Shown piece after piece: positions 28,056-44,770 of a stretch of DNA of 64,000 bases. The stretch comes from an uncultured bacterium. GTDB taxonomy: Bacteria; Patescibacteriota; Minisyncoccia; Moranbacterales; UBA2206. Location of the stretch: assembly GCA_903831805.1 (NCBI GenBank), contig CAIKZD010000009.1, positions 8,786 to 72,785 on the forward strand, written 5' to 3'. Within the stretch, counting starts at the first letter, position 1; every line of letters begins with the position of its first letter. The notes beneath the pieces are model-generated. The model had not been told where the DNA came from. It did no database searches and worked only from the letters and a program-made list of their open reading frames with translations. Position numbers and translations under genes: made by a program.

Positions 28056-28128
28056 GCCACCTTAGCTCAGTTGGCAGAGCGACGCACTCGTAACGCGTAG
28101 GTCGTCGGTTCGATTCCGACAGGTGGCT
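28056..28128 (+). tRNA. tRNA-Thr (anticodon CGT)
   Basis: Cloverleaf by eye: acceptor gccacct/aggtggc, D arm gctc-agttggc-gagc, anticodon loop cuCGUaa, T arm gtcgg-ttcgatt-ccgac. CCA not encoded. Confidence 0.7.
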
Positions 28129-35553: not shown

Positions 35554-35625
35554 TGGAGCGTAGCCAAGTGGTAAGGCAACGGGTTCTGATCCCGTCATGC
35601 GTAGGTCCGAATCCTACCGCTCCAA
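35554..35625 (+). tRNA. tRNA-Gln (anticodon CTG)
   Basis: U1:A72 acceptor (tggagcg/cgctcca), D arm gcc-aagtggtaa-ggc, anticodon stem acggg/cccgt with loop uuCUGau, T arm gtagg-tccgaat-cctac. Confidence 0.7.
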
Positions 35626-35778: not shown

Positions 35779-36441
35779 ATGAAATATACTTTCAAAGATT
35801 ACCGTAATGCAGGAATGGTTTTGTTTTGTTTAATTCTGCTCGCTTTTGTGGCTGGCGAAATAGACAAGTCTTATCAGAATGTTTTTGGAAGAGAAAAGGT
35901 AAGCGGATTAATCCAAGACGTAAAGAGGTTCCGCAATGTGCCTGGTTACGACCCAATCACTCTTGATTACATTGTCAATAAACTTGAAGGCGCAGTCAAT
36001 TCCAGGGTGATTACCTGGAAAAGATTGGGCACAGACCATGCCGAACTCAAAAGCTTGGCAAGGCAAAACAGAGTGAAAGATCTTAAAGTAACCCTGCAGA
36101 GGTTCCGAAGTATACCAGGCTACGGCCAAAGCACTAGTAACTACATCATTGATGGATTTGAAAATGCAGTCAAGTCTGATGTGACCACCTGGAAAGAATT
36201 GGAGACAAGTCAGGCTGAGCTCGAAAAATTAGCAAGACAAAATAGAGTGAAGGATCTCAAAATAACCCTAGGGATGTTCCGCAGCATACCCGGTTACGAC
36301 TCAGAGAGTATTCGTTTCGTCATCAATGAACTTAGAGATGCGGTCGACTCCAATGTGACCACCTGGGAAGAATTAGGAACTGACCAAGCTGAGCTCGAGA
36401 GCCTGGCAAAACAAAATAAAGCGAAAGAAGGAGAAATGTAA
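35779..36441 (+). CDS. secreted or membrane-anchored protein with three tandem ~48-aa repeats
   Basis: N-terminal hydrophobic helix. Repeats of FRSIPGY..x..TW(K/E)EL(G/E)T(D/S)QAELExLA(R/K)QN(R/K)VKDLK. Confidence 0.6.
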   Translation: MKYTFKDYRNAGMVLFCLILLAFVAGEIDKSYQNVFGREKVSGLIQDVKRFRNVPGYDPITLDYIVNKLEGAVNSRVITWKRLGTDHAELKSLARQNRVKDLKVTLQRFRSIPGYGQSTSNYIIDGFENAVKSDVTTWKELETSQAELEKLARQNRVKDLKITLGMFRSIPGYDSESIRFVINELRDAVDSNVTTWEELGTDQAELESLAKQNKAKEGEM

Positions 36442-36637: not shown

Positions 36638-36934
36638 ATGAGTGAGTCTGAAAAGTTTTACCCAGAGTTTTTAGATGTTGGTTCGAAAGGCCCCGCAGTT
36701 GCCCATCTGCAATCAGCTCTGTTGCAGGCAGGATATAATCCCGCTATTGAAGTGGATGGCGATTATGGAGGGCAAACGACGTTAGGCGTGCGTGAATTGC
36801 AGGAAGAGTTGGGTGTTGAAGTTGATGGACACTTCGGTCCGGCCACGAGAGATGCTTGGACTAAGGCTGGCGGACCGGACGTGAACGCTATACCCAAGAG
36901 TGCATTCACATGTGCAGAGGCTTATATCGGATAA
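36638..36934 (+). CDS. peptidoglycan-binding (PG_binding_1-like) domain protein
   Basis: LQSALLQAGYNPAIEVDGDYGGQTTLGVRELQEELGVEVDGHFGPATRDAW. GGAGG Shine-Dalgarno. Confidence 0.65.
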   Translation: MSESEKFYPEFLDVGSKGPAVAHLQSALLQAGYNPAIEVDGDYGGQTTLGVRELQEELGVEVDGHFGPATRDAWTKAGGPDVNAIPKSAFTCAEAYIG

Positions 36935-37888: not shown

Positions 37889-37972
37889 CGATGAGGGGGG
37901 ATGTATAATTATCCAAAGAGCCAATCGCGGGAATAATCGTGATTGGCTCTTTTTTATTCCCTCAAAAAACTA

Positions 37973-38032
37973 TTGACAACTTTTTTAAATTGGTTAAAAT
38001 ATGAATTAGCACTCACACTTGACGAGTGCCAG
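37973..38032 (+). promoter_or_regulatory. promoter (TTGACA-16-TAAAAT) followed by CIRCE-like operator TTAGCACTC-N9-GAGTGCCAG
   Basis: CIRCE consensus is TTAGCACTC-N9-GAGTGCTAA. Sits directly upstream of hrcA. Confidence 0.65.
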
Positions 38033-38053
38033 CGGAGGATATATAATGGTTTT

Positions 38054-38791
38054 ATGAATGAGAGACATAAAAAAATATTAGCGGCCATTATTGAAGAATA
38101 TACCACTTCGGCTGTTCCGGTCGGCTCAAAAATCTTGTCGGACAAATATGATTTCAAAGTCAGTCCGGCCACTATTCGCAGCGACATGGCGGAATTGGAA
38201 GAGGGCGGTTTTCTCTATCAGACCCACATCAGTTCCGGCCGGATTCCGACAGACAAAGGTTATCGGCTGTTTGTGGAGGAAATCATGGGGGACAAAAAAT
38301 TGAGCCTGACTGAACAACGGAAGTTGCAATCGGAAATGTTGAAACTGAAAGCTCAGAACAAGCAGTTGTCGCGCGTGACCGCCAAGCTCTTGTCGTCGCT
38401 CAGTGGCAACTTGGTGATTAGCGGCCTGGAGAATGAATCGTATGATTTCGGGATGCGGGAACTTTTGGCCAAGCCGGAATTCCAGCATGTGGACGAATTT
38501 TGTCGTATTGCGGAAGCGCTGGACTATATCGATGAGAACGTGGAAGCCATTTTGGCCAAAGTGAAAGATGGGGAAACGAAAATTTTCATCGGCAGCGAAA
38601 ATCCGATCAAGGGGATTGATAATTGTTCCATGGTGGTGACGCCGTACACCACCAAGACCGGCGAAAAGGGTGTGCTGGCGATTGTGGGACCCAAAAGGAT
38701 GAAATATGCCAAGAATAAGTCACTGTTGGATTATGTGAAGAAAATGATCGGAGGAGTGGTAGTGATTGTTTTATTTATAAATATTATTTAG
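38054..38791 (+). CDS. hrcA: heat-inducible transcription repressor HrcA
   Basis: N-terminal winged helix ILAAIIEEYTTSAVPVGSKILSDKY...SPATIRSDMAELEEGGFL. Start at the internal ATG downstream of CIRCE. Confidence 0.75.
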   Translation: MNERHKKILAAIIEEYTTSAVPVGSKILSDKYDFKVSPATIRSDMAELEEGGFLYQTHISSGRIPTDKGYRLFVEEIMGDKKLSLTEQRKLQSEMLKLKAQNKQLSRVTAKLLSSLSGNLVISGLENESYDFGMRELLAKPEFQHVDEFCRIAEALDYIDENVEAILAKVKDGETKIFIGSENPIKGIDNCSMVVTPYTTKTGEKGVLAIVGPKRMKYAKNKSLLDYVKKMIGGVVVIVLFINII

Positions 38792-38842: not shown

Positions 38843-39727
38843 ATGGAGAATAAAAAAAATGAAGTTCAGCCCAAGTCGCGGGTGATGACGTTGACGATTA
38901 AGGCGGTGGTCTTGAACAGGGCCAATGAGGTGCTGGTTCTGCGGCGTTCGCAGGCTAATAAATATGGCATCGGGAAATATGATCTGCCGGGTGGGCATAT
39001 CGAAGAGAATGAGGGCTTACGCAGTTCTATCCTGCGGGAAATCAAAGAAGAAACCGGATTGGATGCGACCATGGGAGAAATCATTGATGTGGTGGAATTT
39101 CCGGAAGACTCTGCGCAGTTCAAGGAAGAAAAAAGAGGGCTGCGGTGTATCTGCTACGTCGATTCTGACGAGGTGGAACTGAGTCCGGAACATGATGAAT
39201 TCAAATGGGTACCTTTGGACATGGCGGCTGATATGTTCTCCGCAGAGGATGGTTTTGAGAAAGAAAAAAGAGAAACGGTTTTGAAAGCGCAAAAATATCT
39301 GGAGATGCAAGAAGCGACTGACAGATGGAAACGGGCGGCAGCGGACTTTGAAAATTATAAAAAAAGGCAACTGGAAGAACGGAAAGACATGATTGCGTTT
39401 TCTAATCTGAATTTGATGGCCGAAATCATCCCTGTCTTGGACAATTTCCACGCTTCGACGGATCACATCCCAAAAGAGCAAAAAGAAAATGCCTGGGTCA
39501 TCGGTATTATGCATATCCAGTCACAACTGGAAAAGGTGCTGGAAGATAATGGAGTGACGGAAATCAAAGTGGCGGTAGGAGAGGATTTTAACCCGGAAAT
39601 TATGGAAGCGCTGGGCAACGGAGGCGAGGAAAAAGGCGAATGTAAAAATATTGTCAGTAAGATTGTGCAGAAAGGATATAAAATGGGTGGCAGGATTGTG
39701 AGGGCGGCGAGAGTGATTGTGGAATAG
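38843..39727 (+). CDS. grpE: Nudix hydrolase domain fused to nucleotide-exchange factor GrpE
   Basis: Perfect Nudix box GGHIEENEGLRSSILREIKEETGL at the N-terminus. C-terminal half is GrpE-like (DFENYKKRQLEERKD..., GYKMGGRIVRAARVIV). Located between hrcA and dnaK. Confidence 0.7.
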   Translation: MENKKNEVQPKSRVMTLTIKAVVLNRANEVLVLRRSQANKYGIGKYDLPGGHIEENEGLRSSILREIKEETGLDATMGEIIDVVEFPEDSAQFKEEKRGLRCICYVDSDEVELSPEHDEFKWVPLDMAADMFSAEDGFEKEKRETVLKAQKYLEMQEATDRWKRAAADFENYKKRQLEERKDMIAFSNLNLMAEIIPVLDNFHASTDHIPKEQKENAWVIGIMHIQSQLEKVLEDNGVTEIKVAVGEDFNPEIMEALGNGGEEKGECKNIVSKIVQKGYKMGGRIVRAARVIVE

Positions 39728-39807: not shown

Positions 39808-41733
39808 ATGGCAAAAATATTAGGTATCGATTTGGGAACAACTAACTCAGCCATGGCTGTGGTGGAAGGCGGCAGTCCGACTATTTTGGAAAATAAGGAA
39901 GGAGTGCGCACGACGCCTTCGATTGTAGCGATTTCAAAATCCGGCGAACGTTTGGTGGGGCTTTTGGCCAAGCGCCAAGCGGTCACCAATCCGAGTAACA
40001 CTTTGTATTCCATTAAGCGTTTGATCGGCCGCGCGTTTTCGGACGAAGAAGTGCAGCGCGATATGAAACTGATGCCGTATAAGATCGAGCAAGCTGGCGG
40101 CAGTGTGAAGATCAAGATGGGGGATAAGGATTATACTCCGCAAGAAATTTCGGCCATGATTTTGGGCAAGCTCAAGGCGGACGCGGAAGAGAAATTGGGT
40201 GAAAAAATCACTGAAGCGGTCATCACCGTGCCGGCCTATTTTGATGATGCACAAAGAAAAGCCACTAAGGAAGCGGGCGAAATTGCGGGCCTCAATGTGC
40301 GCCGCATCATCAATGAACCGACCGCGGCGGCCTTGGCTTATGGTTTCAATAAGAAAAAAGACGAAAAAATTGCGGTCTACGACTTGGGCGGCGGTACTTT
40401 CGACATTTCCATTTTGGAAGTGGGCGACGACACCGTGGAAGTGAAATCGACCAACGGCGACACGCATTTGGGCGGCGACGATTTTGATCAAGTCATCATC
40501 AGTTGGATAATTTCAGAATTCAAAAAACAAGAAGGCATCGATTTGGGCAATGATCCATTGGCTCTGCAACGCATCAAAGAAGCGGCGGAGAAAGGCAAGA
40601 TTGAACTGTCGACGGCCGCCGAAACGGAAATCAATCAGCCGTTCATCACAACTGATGCTAATGGTCCGAAACACTTGGTGATGAAAATGACGCGCGCCAA
40701 ATTGGAAGAATTGGTGGGGGAACTGGTTGCGAAAACTTTGGAGCCGACCAAGAAAGCTTTGGCGGATGCAAAATTGTCCGTAACTGATATCAACGAAGTG
40801 GTGATGGTGGGCGGTATGACCCGCATGCCACTGGTCGTGAAAACGGTGGAAGAATTCTTCGGCAAGAAAGTTAACCTGACGGTGAACCCGGATGAAGTGG
40901 TGGCGCTCGGGGCGGCAATTCAAGGGGGCGTGCTACAAGGTGATGTGAAAGATGTTTTGCTGCTTGATGTTACTCCACTGACACTCGGCATTGAAACGAT
41001 GGGCGGCGTGCGCACTCCGCTCATTGAAAGGAATACGACCGTTCCAACTTCCAAATCGCAAGTCTTTTCCACGGCGGCCGACAATCAGCCTTCGGTGGAG
41101 ATTCATGTTTTGCAAGGCGAGCGCGAAATGGCGGCGGATAACAAAACTTTAGGCCGCTTTATCCTGGACGGCATCCCGCCATCTCCGCGCGGCATTCCGC
41201 AAGTGGAAGTCAGTTTTGACATTGACGCGAACGGTATTCTTAGTGTGAAGGCCAAAGACAAAGCTACGAACAAAGAACAATCCATCCGTATTGAAGCTTC
41301 CAGTGGACTGTCTAAAGAAGAAGTGGAAAAAATGAAAAAAGATGCGGAAGTGCACGCTGAAGAAGATAAGAAGAAAAAAGAAAAAGTGGAAATAAAAAAT
41401 ATGGCGGACACTTTGGTGTTCACCACCGAAAAAGCCTTGCGTGACGCGGGAGACAAAATCACCGCTGAAGAAAAGAAACCAGTGGAAGAAGCGATTGAGA
41501 ACTTGAAGAAAGTTAAGGAGGGCGAGGACGCGGAAGCTACTAAGAAAGCTACCGAAGAACTTTCCCTGGCGGCGCAAAAGATCGGGGAGAAATTATATAA
41601 AGCGGCAACTGATGCACAAGCGGCACAAACTCCGCCGACCGGCGACCCCGCCTCCGCTGAAGCTACGGCAGGCGAAGCAAAAACTGAACCGGAAGTGAAG
41701 GACGCAGAGACGAAAGAGGGAGAGGCGAAATAA
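39808..41733 (+). CDS. dnaK: molecular chaperone DnaK (Hsp70)
   Basis: [18 protein letters not shown], 641 aa. Confidence 0.95.
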
Positions 41734-41740
41734 AAAAAGC

Positions 41741-42510
41741 AAAAAATAGAGCGGACTAGCGGACTGTTCGTCGTAACCGACGGACCGTTCGCTTGGCTTA
41801 TCGTAACCGCGAACGGTCCGCTTATCGGAGTACCTCAAGCGAACAGTCCGCGGAAGTTAGTGAATATGAGTGTTGCAAAATATAAAATAAAAGATTCTTA
41901 TCCAGGTATGGTTTGCCATGTTTATAATAGGGGAGTGAATAAGGAAAAAATATTTAGAGATGAAAATGATTATGTTTTTTATTTGAAAAAAGTCAGGGAA
42001 TATAAGGAAAAATATGAGATAGATGTAATTTGCTATAGCTTTTTGGATAATCATTACCATTACATCCTAGAACAACTAGGAGAGGAGCCAATAACAAATT
42101 TTATGCGCTCGGTTCATACGAGCTATGGACAATATTTCAATAAAAAATATAATAGAGTAGGTCCGCTTTTTCAAGGGAGATTCAAACAGGCAGTACTGAA
42201 TGACAATAATTTTATTTATCTATCCGCTTATGTGAACGCCAATGCTCAAATTCATGGAATTATTGATAAGGCTGAAGAGCATAGGTGGTGCAGTTACCCT
42301 GATTATCTGGGATTGAGAAATGGGACCTTGTGCAATAAAGCAAGAATACTAGATCAGTTTAAGGATATATTGGAGTATAGAGGATTTGTTGAAGAAAATG
42401 TGAAGGAGTTTAAAATTAAAAAAGAAGCAGATAAATTCATACTAGAGGATTGAGTGAATATAACTTAGCGAACGGTCCGCTGATTACAGCGAACAGTCCG
42501 CTAAATTTAG
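41741..42510 (+). mobile_element. IS200/REPtron-like unit: HUH Y1 transposase flanked by inverted REP-like palindrome clusters (GCGAACNGTCCGC / GCGGACNGTTCGC)
   Basis: Left cluster 41746-41853 (4 units, nested inverted) and right cluster 42465-42504 (2 units) in opposite orientation. About 770 bp. Confidence 0.65.
41866..42453 (+). CDS. tnpA: IS200/IS605-family TnpA / REP-associated tyrosine transposase (RAYT)-like
   Basis: HUH motif DNHYHYIL, about 195 aa, flanked by REP-like palindromes. Confidence 0.7.
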   Translation: MSVAKYKIKDSYPGMVCHVYNRGVNKEKIFRDENDYVFYLKKVREYKEKYEIDVICYSFLDNHYHYILEQLGEEPITNFMRSVHTSYGQYFNKKYNRVGPLFQGRFKQAVLNDNNFIYLSAYVNANAQIHGIIDKAEEHRWCSYPDYLGLRNGTLCNKARILDQFKDILEYRGFVEENVKEFKIKKEADKFILED

Positions 42511-42520
42511 TAGAACAATT

Positions 42521-44506: not shown

Positions 44507-44579
44507 GCGCCTATAGCTCAGTTGGTAGAGCAGTTGCCTTTTAAGCAAACGGTCCCTGGTTCGAGTCCAGGTGGGCGCA
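44507..44579 (+). tRNA. tRNA-Lys (anticodon TTT)
   Basis: Cloverleaf: acceptor gcgccta/tgggcgc, D arm gctc-agttggta-gagc, anticodon loop cuUUUaa, T arm cctgg-ttcgagt-ccagg. Confidence 0.75.
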
Positions 44580-44663: not shown

Positions 44664-44770
44664 CTTCCGCGGACTGTTCGCTTGAGGTACTCCGACAAGT
44701 GGACCGTTCGCGTTTACTTAAAGCTAAGCGAACGGTCCGTCGATTACGACGAACAGTCCGCTCTATTTTT
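44664..44770 (-). repeat. REP/BIME-like palindrome cluster, inverted copy of 41741-41860 (about 90% identity as reverse complement)
   Basis: Reverse complement of cluster 1 aligns along about 115 bp, including linker sequences. Confidence 0.75.

Follow-up and report, generated by a model that had tools for sequence, protein, structure and literature searches.

The 64,000-nucleotide stretch of contig CAIKZD010000009.1 analyzed here (assembly GCA_903831805.1; hereafter the window) comes from an uncultured bacterium whose lineage is Candidatus Moraniibacteriota, within the Parcubacteria/Patescibacteria group, and carries between hrcA and dnaK a single open reading frame (ORF) of 294 amino acids (aa) plus stop codon, with zero internal stops, in which a Nudix domain is joined to the Hsp70 nucleotide exchange factor GrpE. 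Pfam places NUDIX (PF00293) at aa 19-131 (E 3e-18; score 66.6 bits, cutoff 21.1) and GrpE (PF01025) at aa 141-293 (E 3.7e-36; score 124.7 bits, cutoff 25.8), the latter match covering profile positions 15-163 of 165. NCBIfam GrpE equivalogs also match the C-terminal half (best 1.4e-24), though with scores below their clade-specific cutoffs. An earlier inspection of the letters alone, which we call the sequence-only reading, had described a perfect Nudix box, a recognizable GrpE in the C-terminal half, and replacement of the disordered N-terminal region of GrpE, and all three descriptions stand. The box is an exact fit to the pattern GX5EX7REUXEEXGU, the Pfam match identifies the GrpE half, and in an alignment with E. 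coli GrpE residues 33-192 of the latter pair with residues 133-293 of the fusion. Because E. coli GrpE aligns from residue 33 onward, only its disordered tail of about 33 residues is replaced, and the whole structured part of GrpE is present.

A frameshift or sequencing error had been named beforehand as a point on which this interpretation could fail. That such an error, a misassembly, or read-through from one separate gene into the next produced the fusion now has a vanishingly small probability, and nothing was found in its favor. No frameshift was found: the identical 294-aa protein, for which there is no name or accession on record, is encoded on 16 or more contigs that stem from different assemblers and from samples independently deposited at ENA, JGI, Logan, and NCBI, flanked by hrcA and dnaK every time, and the fusion recurs in 57 species-level genomes, which together exclude a sequencing error as its origin. 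The purifying selection seen in both halves and the single unbroken helix predicted across the junction, both described below, also speak against an artifact. The Nudix-GrpE fusion is confirmed as a real architecture that is conserved in the Moranbacteria, a lineage whose members have tiny genomes. Its parts and its neighbors in the chaperone operon are listed in Table 1.

Table 1. Features of the nudix-grpE gene and the surrounding chaperone operon (positions are those of the window)
Feature	Position	Strand	Basis
Intrinsic-terminator-like hairpin, 16-bp stem and T run	37915..37952	+	Sequence scan
Two sigma-70-like promoter matches	37973..38047	+	Consensus matches only
CIRCE operator match, TTAGCACTC-N9-GAGTGCCAG	38006..38032	+	Consensus match
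hrcA	38054..38791	+	Pfam HrcA, 4.9e-22
nudix-grpE fusion gene	38843..39727	+	ORF call, Pfam, recurrence on other contigs
Short basic N-terminal tail, MENKKNEVQPKSRVM	38843..38887 (aa 1-15)	+	AF2 pLDDT <50 for aa 1-12; sequence reading
Nudix alpha/beta/alpha fold	38888..39235 (aa 16-131)	+	Pfam, AF2, Foldseek, profile search
Nudix box, GHIEENEGLRSSILREIKEETGL	38993..39061 (aa 51-73)	+	Pattern fit and family alignment
Continuous predicted helix	39251..39460 (aa 137-206)	+	AF2 and family alignment
GrpE body: stalk helix, four-helix bundle, C-terminal beta domain	39299..39724 (aa 153-294)	+	Pfam, NCBIfam, PDB match, AF2, E. coli alignment
dnaK, 641 aa, partner Hsp70	39808..41733	+	ORF, Pfam HSP70
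dnaJ, 375 aa	42521..43648	+	ORF; parted from dnaK by REP/IS200-like insertion 41757-42511

AlphaFold2 (AF2), run with the family alignment, returned a mean predicted local distance difference test (pLDDT) score of 87.8 over the protein, with the Nudix fold at a pLDDT of ~90, the long continuous helix, a second helix at aa 211-235, and beta strands at aa 238-293, reproducing the long helix, four-helix bundle, and C-terminal beta domain of GrpE. The first helix is 70 residues long and runs from the Nudix C-terminal or linker helix (DGFEKEK..KAQKYLE) through the stalk (WKR..ADFENYKKR) into the first helix of the bundle. Failure of the N-terminal half to adopt a Nudix fold had been the other outcome named in advance as damaging, and the opposite was obtained: Foldseek matched the model to many Nudix structures in the PDB with probability 1.0 and target TM-scores of 0.7-0.79, the best being 3grn, followed by MutT2, BdRppH, a NudG-like CTPase, MutT1, NUDT15, and hydrolases of diadenosine tetra- and hexaphosphate (Ap4A and Ap6A), and it also matched, again with probability 1.0, the GrpE and GrpEL1 chains 9a81_A and 9bls_C. 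The relative orientation of the domains is uncertain, since the predicted TM-score of the model is only 0.61.

Recurrence was assessed among the 120 best homologue clusters at 90% identity (33-100% identity to the query) and at the best 80 loci of a one-genome-per-species collection. PF00293 and PF01025 occur together in about 118 of the 120 clusters listed, that is, in at least about 118 clusters in public data, and where the fused clusters are named at all they read only "nucleotide exchange factor GrpE" and come from Moranbacteria or Parcubacteria metagenome-assembled genomes (MAGs). At the species level, Nudix and GrpE lie in one frame at 57 of the 80 loci, and the other 23 have a grpE gene with no Nudix domain; all but one of these 23 encode a plain GrpE whose N-terminus is acidic and of low complexity. 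The order hrcA-grpE-dnaK is found in the window and at nearly all loci, and since fused and plain genes share the same hrcA-[grpE]-dnaK slot, the fusion is in these organisms the ortholog of plain GrpE and the GrpE that the operon encodes. At the 23 plain loci, no Nudix ORF of its own stands between hrcA and grpE, and an origin of the fusion by read-through of an adjacent nudix gene was rejected on that count. Compensation in plain-grpE genomes by a free-standing Nudix gene near the operon was likewise set aside, since such a gene lies there at 3 of the 23 plain loci and 1 of the 57 fused loci, numbers too low to carry an interpretation. Some taxon labels in the locus set are not all reliable: 21 records titled as MAGs of "uncultured Bdellovibrionales" or "Pseudobdellovibrionaceae" (L006, L010, L014-L019, L022, L034, L036, L048, L053-L055, L057, L061, L070, L077, L078, and L080) and one titled "Candidatus Fimivivens" (L042) carry Moranbacteria-type hrcA-(nudix)grpE-dnaK loci, and these titles are probably wrong.

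The Nudix domains linked to GrpE fall into at least three subtypes, of which type A is the window's own, type B includes L041, L047, L037, and others, and type C includes L038, L043, L048, and L072; L045 is an outlier to the last. These are combined in double-Nudix GrpE proteins, ~450 aa long, as A-A-GrpE (P0118), B-A-GrpE (P0123, L030, and L031), and A-C-GrpE (P0141); in two of their genes (L030, 1-1335; L031, 5476-6840) the first Nudix copy has a one-residue spacing variant of the box, GX6EX7RE. Free-standing tandem-Nudix proteins found in the search of representative sequences, considered as a source of the double forms, showed only remote similarity (50-90 bits) and were rejected. Types A and B have an identical junction, KAQKYLE-x6-WKR, which favors a single initial fusion that later underwent duplication, divergence, or domain exchange. 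Such exchange is also suggested by the comparison of the window with locus L007 (5986-6897), where dN is 0.12 in the GrpE half and 0.59 in the Nudix half and the L007 Nudix half groups with a different Nudix subclade, a mosaic that points to within-gene recombination between lineages. In a midpoint-rooted neighbor-joining (NJ) tree of the GrpE domain, drawn without support values, fused forms occupy all deep branches, and plain forms are nested inside and adjoin fusions with divergent Nudix domains; we tentatively read the plain forms as secondary, the products of repeated loss or decay of the Nudix domain.

The one Nudix-less locus without a plain grpE, L059 (5626-6567; Moranbacteria CG06_land_8_20_14_3_00_40_12), encodes a GrpE with an unrelated N-terminal domain of ~160 aa that has a GSVG...DVDF motif and a sub-threshold Pfam match to NTP_transf_2 (E 0.02); searches of NCBIfam gave no match to this domain and searches of the PDB no meaningful one. 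Its homologues form about 47 clusters, nearly all of them free-standing proteins of 160-170 aa, and are fused to GrpE only in the L059 lineage; one free-standing gene of this type adjoins genes for purB, a dCMP deaminase, and an HD-hydrolase.

Constraint on the fusion was read from an alignment of 39 fusion proteins with 45-75% identity to the query. Within and beside the Nudix box G50, G51, E57, R65, E66, E69, and E70 are invariant, as are K20, R35, D47, R101, and W122 outside it, with E116, H117, and F86 nearly so. The GrpE half keeps R164, A167, N171, K174, P197, D200, N201, F202, G221, G278, Y279, and R287 without exception, and the motifs ADFENYKKR, LPVLDNF, and KGY..R..V are invariant or nearly so in the family. 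The residues by which GrpE is recognized and contacts DnaK are thus in place, namely G221, which stands opposite G122 of E. coli GrpE in the alignment, the basic stalk patch, and KGY..R..V. Three residues of the linker helix (F138, K142, and A149) likewise vary little or not at all. Averaged over pairs, identity amounts to 0.48 in the Nudix domain, 0.49 in the linker, and 0.59 in GrpE. Across nearly all 57 fused loci, divergent subtypes included, the REUxEE core of the box is kept, the exceptions being one-residue spacing variants, an E-to-S change in L045, and the extra N-terminal copy of the double-Nudix forms, and the fusion itself is retained down to ~35% identity. Pairwise dN/dS lies at ~0.08-0.2 in both halves alike, values that are rough because dS is saturated; by this estimate both halves are under purifying selection. 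The retained catalytic motif and low dN/dS indicate that the Nudix half is maintained as an enzyme and is not decaying, and the domain is apparently catalytically competent.

The sequence-only reading had placed the gene in an hrcA-grpE-dnaK-dnaJ operon, and this context proved correct, with hrcA on the 5' side, dnaK and then dnaJ on the 3' side, and an IS200-like ORF between the last two. The strong terminator-like hairpin ends the gene upstream and delimits the chaperone operon on its 5' side. Downstream of it, two promoter-like matches (TTGACA-16-TAAAAT and TTGACG-17-TATAAT, 11 of 12 positions each) overlap a CIRCE operator (controlling inverted repeat of chaperone expression), the sequence to which HrcA binds; the operator was scored against the consensus TTAGCACTC-N9-GAGTGCTAA and found at one site with 2 mismatches, compared with none in 100 shuffles. 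A CIRCE match in the promoter region together with an hrcA gene recognized by Pfam is the arrangement of an HrcA/CIRCE regulon. The mechanical hrcA ORF opens at TTG 37943, and the start is most likely ATG 38054 (MNERHKK...), since the extension from 37943 to 38053 would overlap the terminator, the promoter-like sites, and CIRCE. The operon position and this layout suggest that hrcA, the Nudix-GrpE gene, and dnaK are transcribed together and that heat shock regulates them through HrcA/CIRCE, making the operon putatively heat inducible. The 64-kb window holds no second grpE and no other Nudix gene; for the rest of the genome, synteny suggests that the fusion is the only GrpE.

Between dnaK and dnaJ, the IS200-like element contains a Y1 transposase ORF (41860-42453, + strand; Pfam Y1_Tnp, E 1e-7) flanked by clusters of the palindromic repeat GCGAACNGTCCGC, with a third cluster at 44669-44761 and 12 matches in all against 0.18 expected. 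This layout resembles that of a REP-associated tyrosine transposase (RAYT) with its repetitive extragenic palindromes (REPs), in this case in a genome of the candidate phyla. Two or more further metagenome contigs that carry the same grpE break off inside dnaK or shortly behind it, as would fit an element that is repeated or variable at that place.

The searches did not assign the Nudix domain to a substrate class. The family-specific NCBIfam models all scored far below their cutoffs: the MutT 8-oxo-dGTPase models TIGR00586 and NF008044 gave 36.5 bits against 97.9 and 36.9 against 148, the RppH/Ap4A-type model NF001938 and related models 29.9 against 116, NudE (NF008736) 19 against 169, and NadM-Nudix (NF00379x) 41 against 409, in the box region only. 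A profile of the Nudix half searched against PDB sequences found 3grn of Methanosarcina mazei first (5e-23), then NudI, MutT, BdRppH, and NudG/CTPase at 1e-12 to 1e-10 and the NUDT2 Ap4A hydrolase at 3.5e-10, with ADP-ribose pyrophosphatases weaker. The domain is best described as a MutT-like pyrophosphohydrolase of (deoxy)nucleoside tri- or diphosphates ((d)NTP/NDP) or of dinucleoside polyphosphates, and among the substrates suggested earlier ADP-ribose appears the least supported. Levels of Ap4A increase under heat shock, the molecule cross-links to DnaK, GroEL, and ClpB, and Nudix enzymes degrade it; accumulation of Ap4A-type dinucleotides leads to heat sensitivity (PMC10148737). Such dinucleotides are the most attractive candidate substrate, though as a specific assignment they are doubtful.

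We propose, with a probability of roughly 0.6, that Nudix-GrpE is a bifunctional co-chaperone, in which GrpE brings a heat-inducible, stoichiometric Nudix hydrolase to DnaK for the removal of a stress-generated or non-canonical nucleotide. The protein would be the organism's operonic GrpE and the exchange factor of DnaK, bearing a MutT-like Nudix domain in place of the tail, and would dimerize through its stalk helices as other GrpEs do. Two Nudix domains would then sit at the N-terminal tip of the stalk beside the substrate-binding domain (SBD) of DnaK, and at the opposite end the C-terminal beta domain would open the nucleotide cleft. Synthesized 1:1 with GrpE, heat-shock induced, and brought to DnaK in this way, the Nudix domain would there most likely hydrolyze its substrate, with dinucleoside polyphosphates (for example Ap4A) or damaged (d)NTP/NDP favored over ADP-ribose, and so would keep the local nucleotide pool fit for the reloading of DnaK with ATP. 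The sequence-only reading had suggested nucleotide sensing or clearing coupled to Hsp70 nucleotide exchange; the invariant catalytic residues favor hydrolysis over pure sensing, and the published DnaK-GrpE geometry (PMC10803776) speaks against a direct coupling to ADP release. The remaining tail, aa 1-15, is basic, predicted to be disordered, and has no free hydrophobic IIM-like motif; with the pseudo-substrate tail gone, the substrate release that it drives in other GrpEs has probably been lost or altered in this lineage. The coupling looks selected and not accidental, because three Nudix subtypes and tandem forms occur at one position, types A and B share their junction, and the plain loci have no separate Nudix gene. 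Direct channeling of ADP from the DnaK cleft to the Nudix site was rejected: the beta domain opens the cleft, and the N-terminus lies near the SBD at the far end of the 70-residue helix, which makes direct capture of the departing ADP unlikely.

Several points weigh against the bifunctional proposal. Both its hydrolase and its exchange activities are predictions, and the Nudix domain cannot be assigned to a substrate class, because all NCBIfam Nudix equivalogs fall far below cutoff and the best structural relative, 3grn, is uncharacterized. The link to nucleotide exchange could only be indirect, given that the Nudix active site would lie tens of angstroms from the nucleotide pocket of DnaK. 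Around 23 of the 80 related species do with a plain GrpE, and this, together with the repeated Nudix loss suggested by the rough NJ tree, indicates that the coupling is dispensable.

A narrower form of the proposal, possible but unlikely in our estimate, holds that under heat shock the chaperone-tethered hydrolase destroys Ap4A-type dinucleoside polyphosphates or oxidized adenine nucleotides that could occupy or inhibit DnaK. If true, such a GrpE would both empty the nucleotide site of DnaK and clear a competing inhibitor, would be the first Hsp70 exchange factor with an enzymatic activity of its own, and would offer a mechanistic basis for the decades-old observations of Ap4A binding to DnaK and of heat-sensitive Ap4A-hydrolase mutants.

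The placement of the Nudix domain where the regulatory tail normally acts, next to the half of the stalk that binds the SBD, would also suit a sensor, in which the domain serves mainly to bind a nucleotide ligand, in the manner of NrtR's Nudix domain, and through the rigid helix tunes the action of GrpE on the SBD or the unfolding of the stalk thermosensor, taking the place of the lost pseudo-substrate tail, hydrolysis being secondary or a reset. The continuity of the connecting helix, its (nearly) invariant residues, and a linker identity close to that of the Nudix domain are in keeping with such a role. Known sensor Nudix domains such as NrtR, however, typically lose their catalytic residues, whereas here all catalytic and metal-binding residues of the box are invariant, and tandem double-Nudix forms are hard to fit to a single allosteric switch; we consider a sensor improbable, though still a reading to be reckoned with. 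The strict conservation of the catalytic glutamates and the tandem forms also tell against the idea that paired Nudix domains only stabilize the coiled-coil thermosensor of GrpE at its N-terminal end or adjust its properties, their enzymology being irrelevant, for which both would be left unexplained. Many Nudix enzymes are dimers, the Nudix domain is rigidly joined to the stalk in the AF2 model, and the stalk serves as the thermosensor in E. coli GrpE; even with these points in its favor, a purely structural clamp seems very unlikely.

Somewhat less probable than a sensor, and well ahead of the clamp, is an opportunistic fusion of a housekeeping Nudix enzyme to grpE in a reduced genome, the two activities remaining independent and the gain consisting in co-expression, gene economy, or a dimerization scaffold supplied by GrpE. 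The genomes of candidate phyla are compact, a plain GrpE is found in many related species, the lineage of L059 has fused a different domain to GrpE, so that the N-terminus evidently tolerates additions, and the comparison of the window with L007 suggests a mosaic history. An accidental union sits less easily with a fusion that persists over such sequence divergence, with the confinement of three subtypes and several tandem combinations to one position, with the conserved linker, and with the lack of any adjacent but separate nudix/grpE intermediate at the 23 plain loci.

The usual view of GrpE is of an exchange factor that is purely structural and that modulates the release of substrate through a variable N-terminal tail. 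Across the lineage described here, that tail has been swapped for a conserved, apparently active nucleotide pyrophosphohydrolase under predicted heat-shock control, and coupling of the activities, if it exists, would tie the sanitation of the nucleotide pool or the turnover of alarmones directly to the Hsp70 cycle. Coupling would also provide a tractable handle on the old link between Ap4A and DnaK, as a 294-aa protein can be expressed recombinantly. The family further constitutes a natural test of what GrpE's N-terminus does, with close relatives whose otherwise near-identical GrpE bodies are preceded by a plain, a Nudix, or a double-Nudix N-terminus or, in one case, by one that is nucleotidyltransferase-like. 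With hundreds of database entries named only "nucleotide exchange factor GrpE", the enzymatic domain is hidden.

Elsewhere in the window (1-64000), which has a GC content of 44% and in which the longer ORFs not overlapped by still longer ones lie nearly all on the + strand, three tRNA genes were found (Thr-CGT at 28056, Gln-CTG at 35554, and Lys-TTT at 44507). On the 5' side of the chaperone operon lie a small peptidoglycan-binding protein (36638-36934; PG_binding_1, E 6e-13) and a 220-aa protein (35779-36441, + strand) with three repeats of ~58 aa (…RFR.(V/I)PGY…TW(K/E)(R/E)LGT..AEL(K/E).LA(R/K)QN…), for which there was no significant Pfam family and, with TRF, no tandem repeat at the DNA level.

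Compared with canonical GrpE (E. coli 1DKG, Geobacillus kaustophilus 4ANI, Thermus thermophilus 3A6M, and Mycobacterium tuberculosis 8GB3), the fusion has the same stalk helix, four-helix bundle, and beta domain, keeps the signature motifs and the G122 equivalent, and is likewise encoded between hrcA and dnaK under CIRCE, but a folded Nudix domain of ~120 aa and a conserved linker helix stand where canonical proteins have a disordered acidic tail. That tail, of ~30-45 residues, is a pseudo-substrate for the DnaK SBD (PMC12915176, PMC10803776); in E. coli the tails occupy the substrate groove of the SBD through their IIM motif (PMC12915176), and in DnaK-GrpE complexes the GrpE N-terminus adjoins the SBD and not the nucleotide cleft (PMC10803776).

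On the Nudix side, the best match in both sequence and structure is 3GRN, the "MutT related protein" of M. mazei (profile E 5e-23, Foldseek E 5e-12, ~30% identity), which differs in being a free-standing, single-domain archaeal protein of 153 aa and a structural-genomics entry of unknown function; having no known substrate, it gives no help with the substrate assignment. The nearest characterized relatives, MutT, NudI, NudG, BdRppH, and the asymmetric Ap4A hydrolases (NUDT2 and Caenorhabditis elegans 1KT9), share the box and the fold at 1e-12 to 1e-8, yet with only 16-25% identity, and none of them is fused to a chaperone cofactor. Open-access full text yielded no description of a Nudix-GrpE fusion, or of an enzyme domain joined to any Hsp70 exchange factor, the papers retrieved naming Nudix and GrpE only separately; neither Nudix nor fusions are mentioned in a review of GrpE-like nucleotide exchange factors from 2025. 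The statement in the sequence-only reading that no example had been described thus holds for the searchable literature, but not if it is taken to mean that the fusion is rare, given the number of public clusters that carry it; the architecture appears to be undescribed in the literature, though visible to domain databases. The closest parallels are NadM-Nudix (nicotinamide mononucleotide adenylyltransferase/ADP-ribose pyrophosphatase), M. smegmatis MutT1 (Nudix with histidine-phosphatase), and NrtR (Nudix with winged helix-turn-helix), fusions of types that turn up among the sequence and structure matches of Nudix-GrpE and that likewise join a Nudix domain to a partner handling a related nucleotide. 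Their partners, however, are metabolic enzymes or a DNA-binding domain, whereas here the partner is an Hsp70 nucleotide exchange factor. That Nudix fusions exist and that GrpE N-termini vary was known already; what appears to be new is the pairing of a Nudix domain with an Hsp70 exchange factor.

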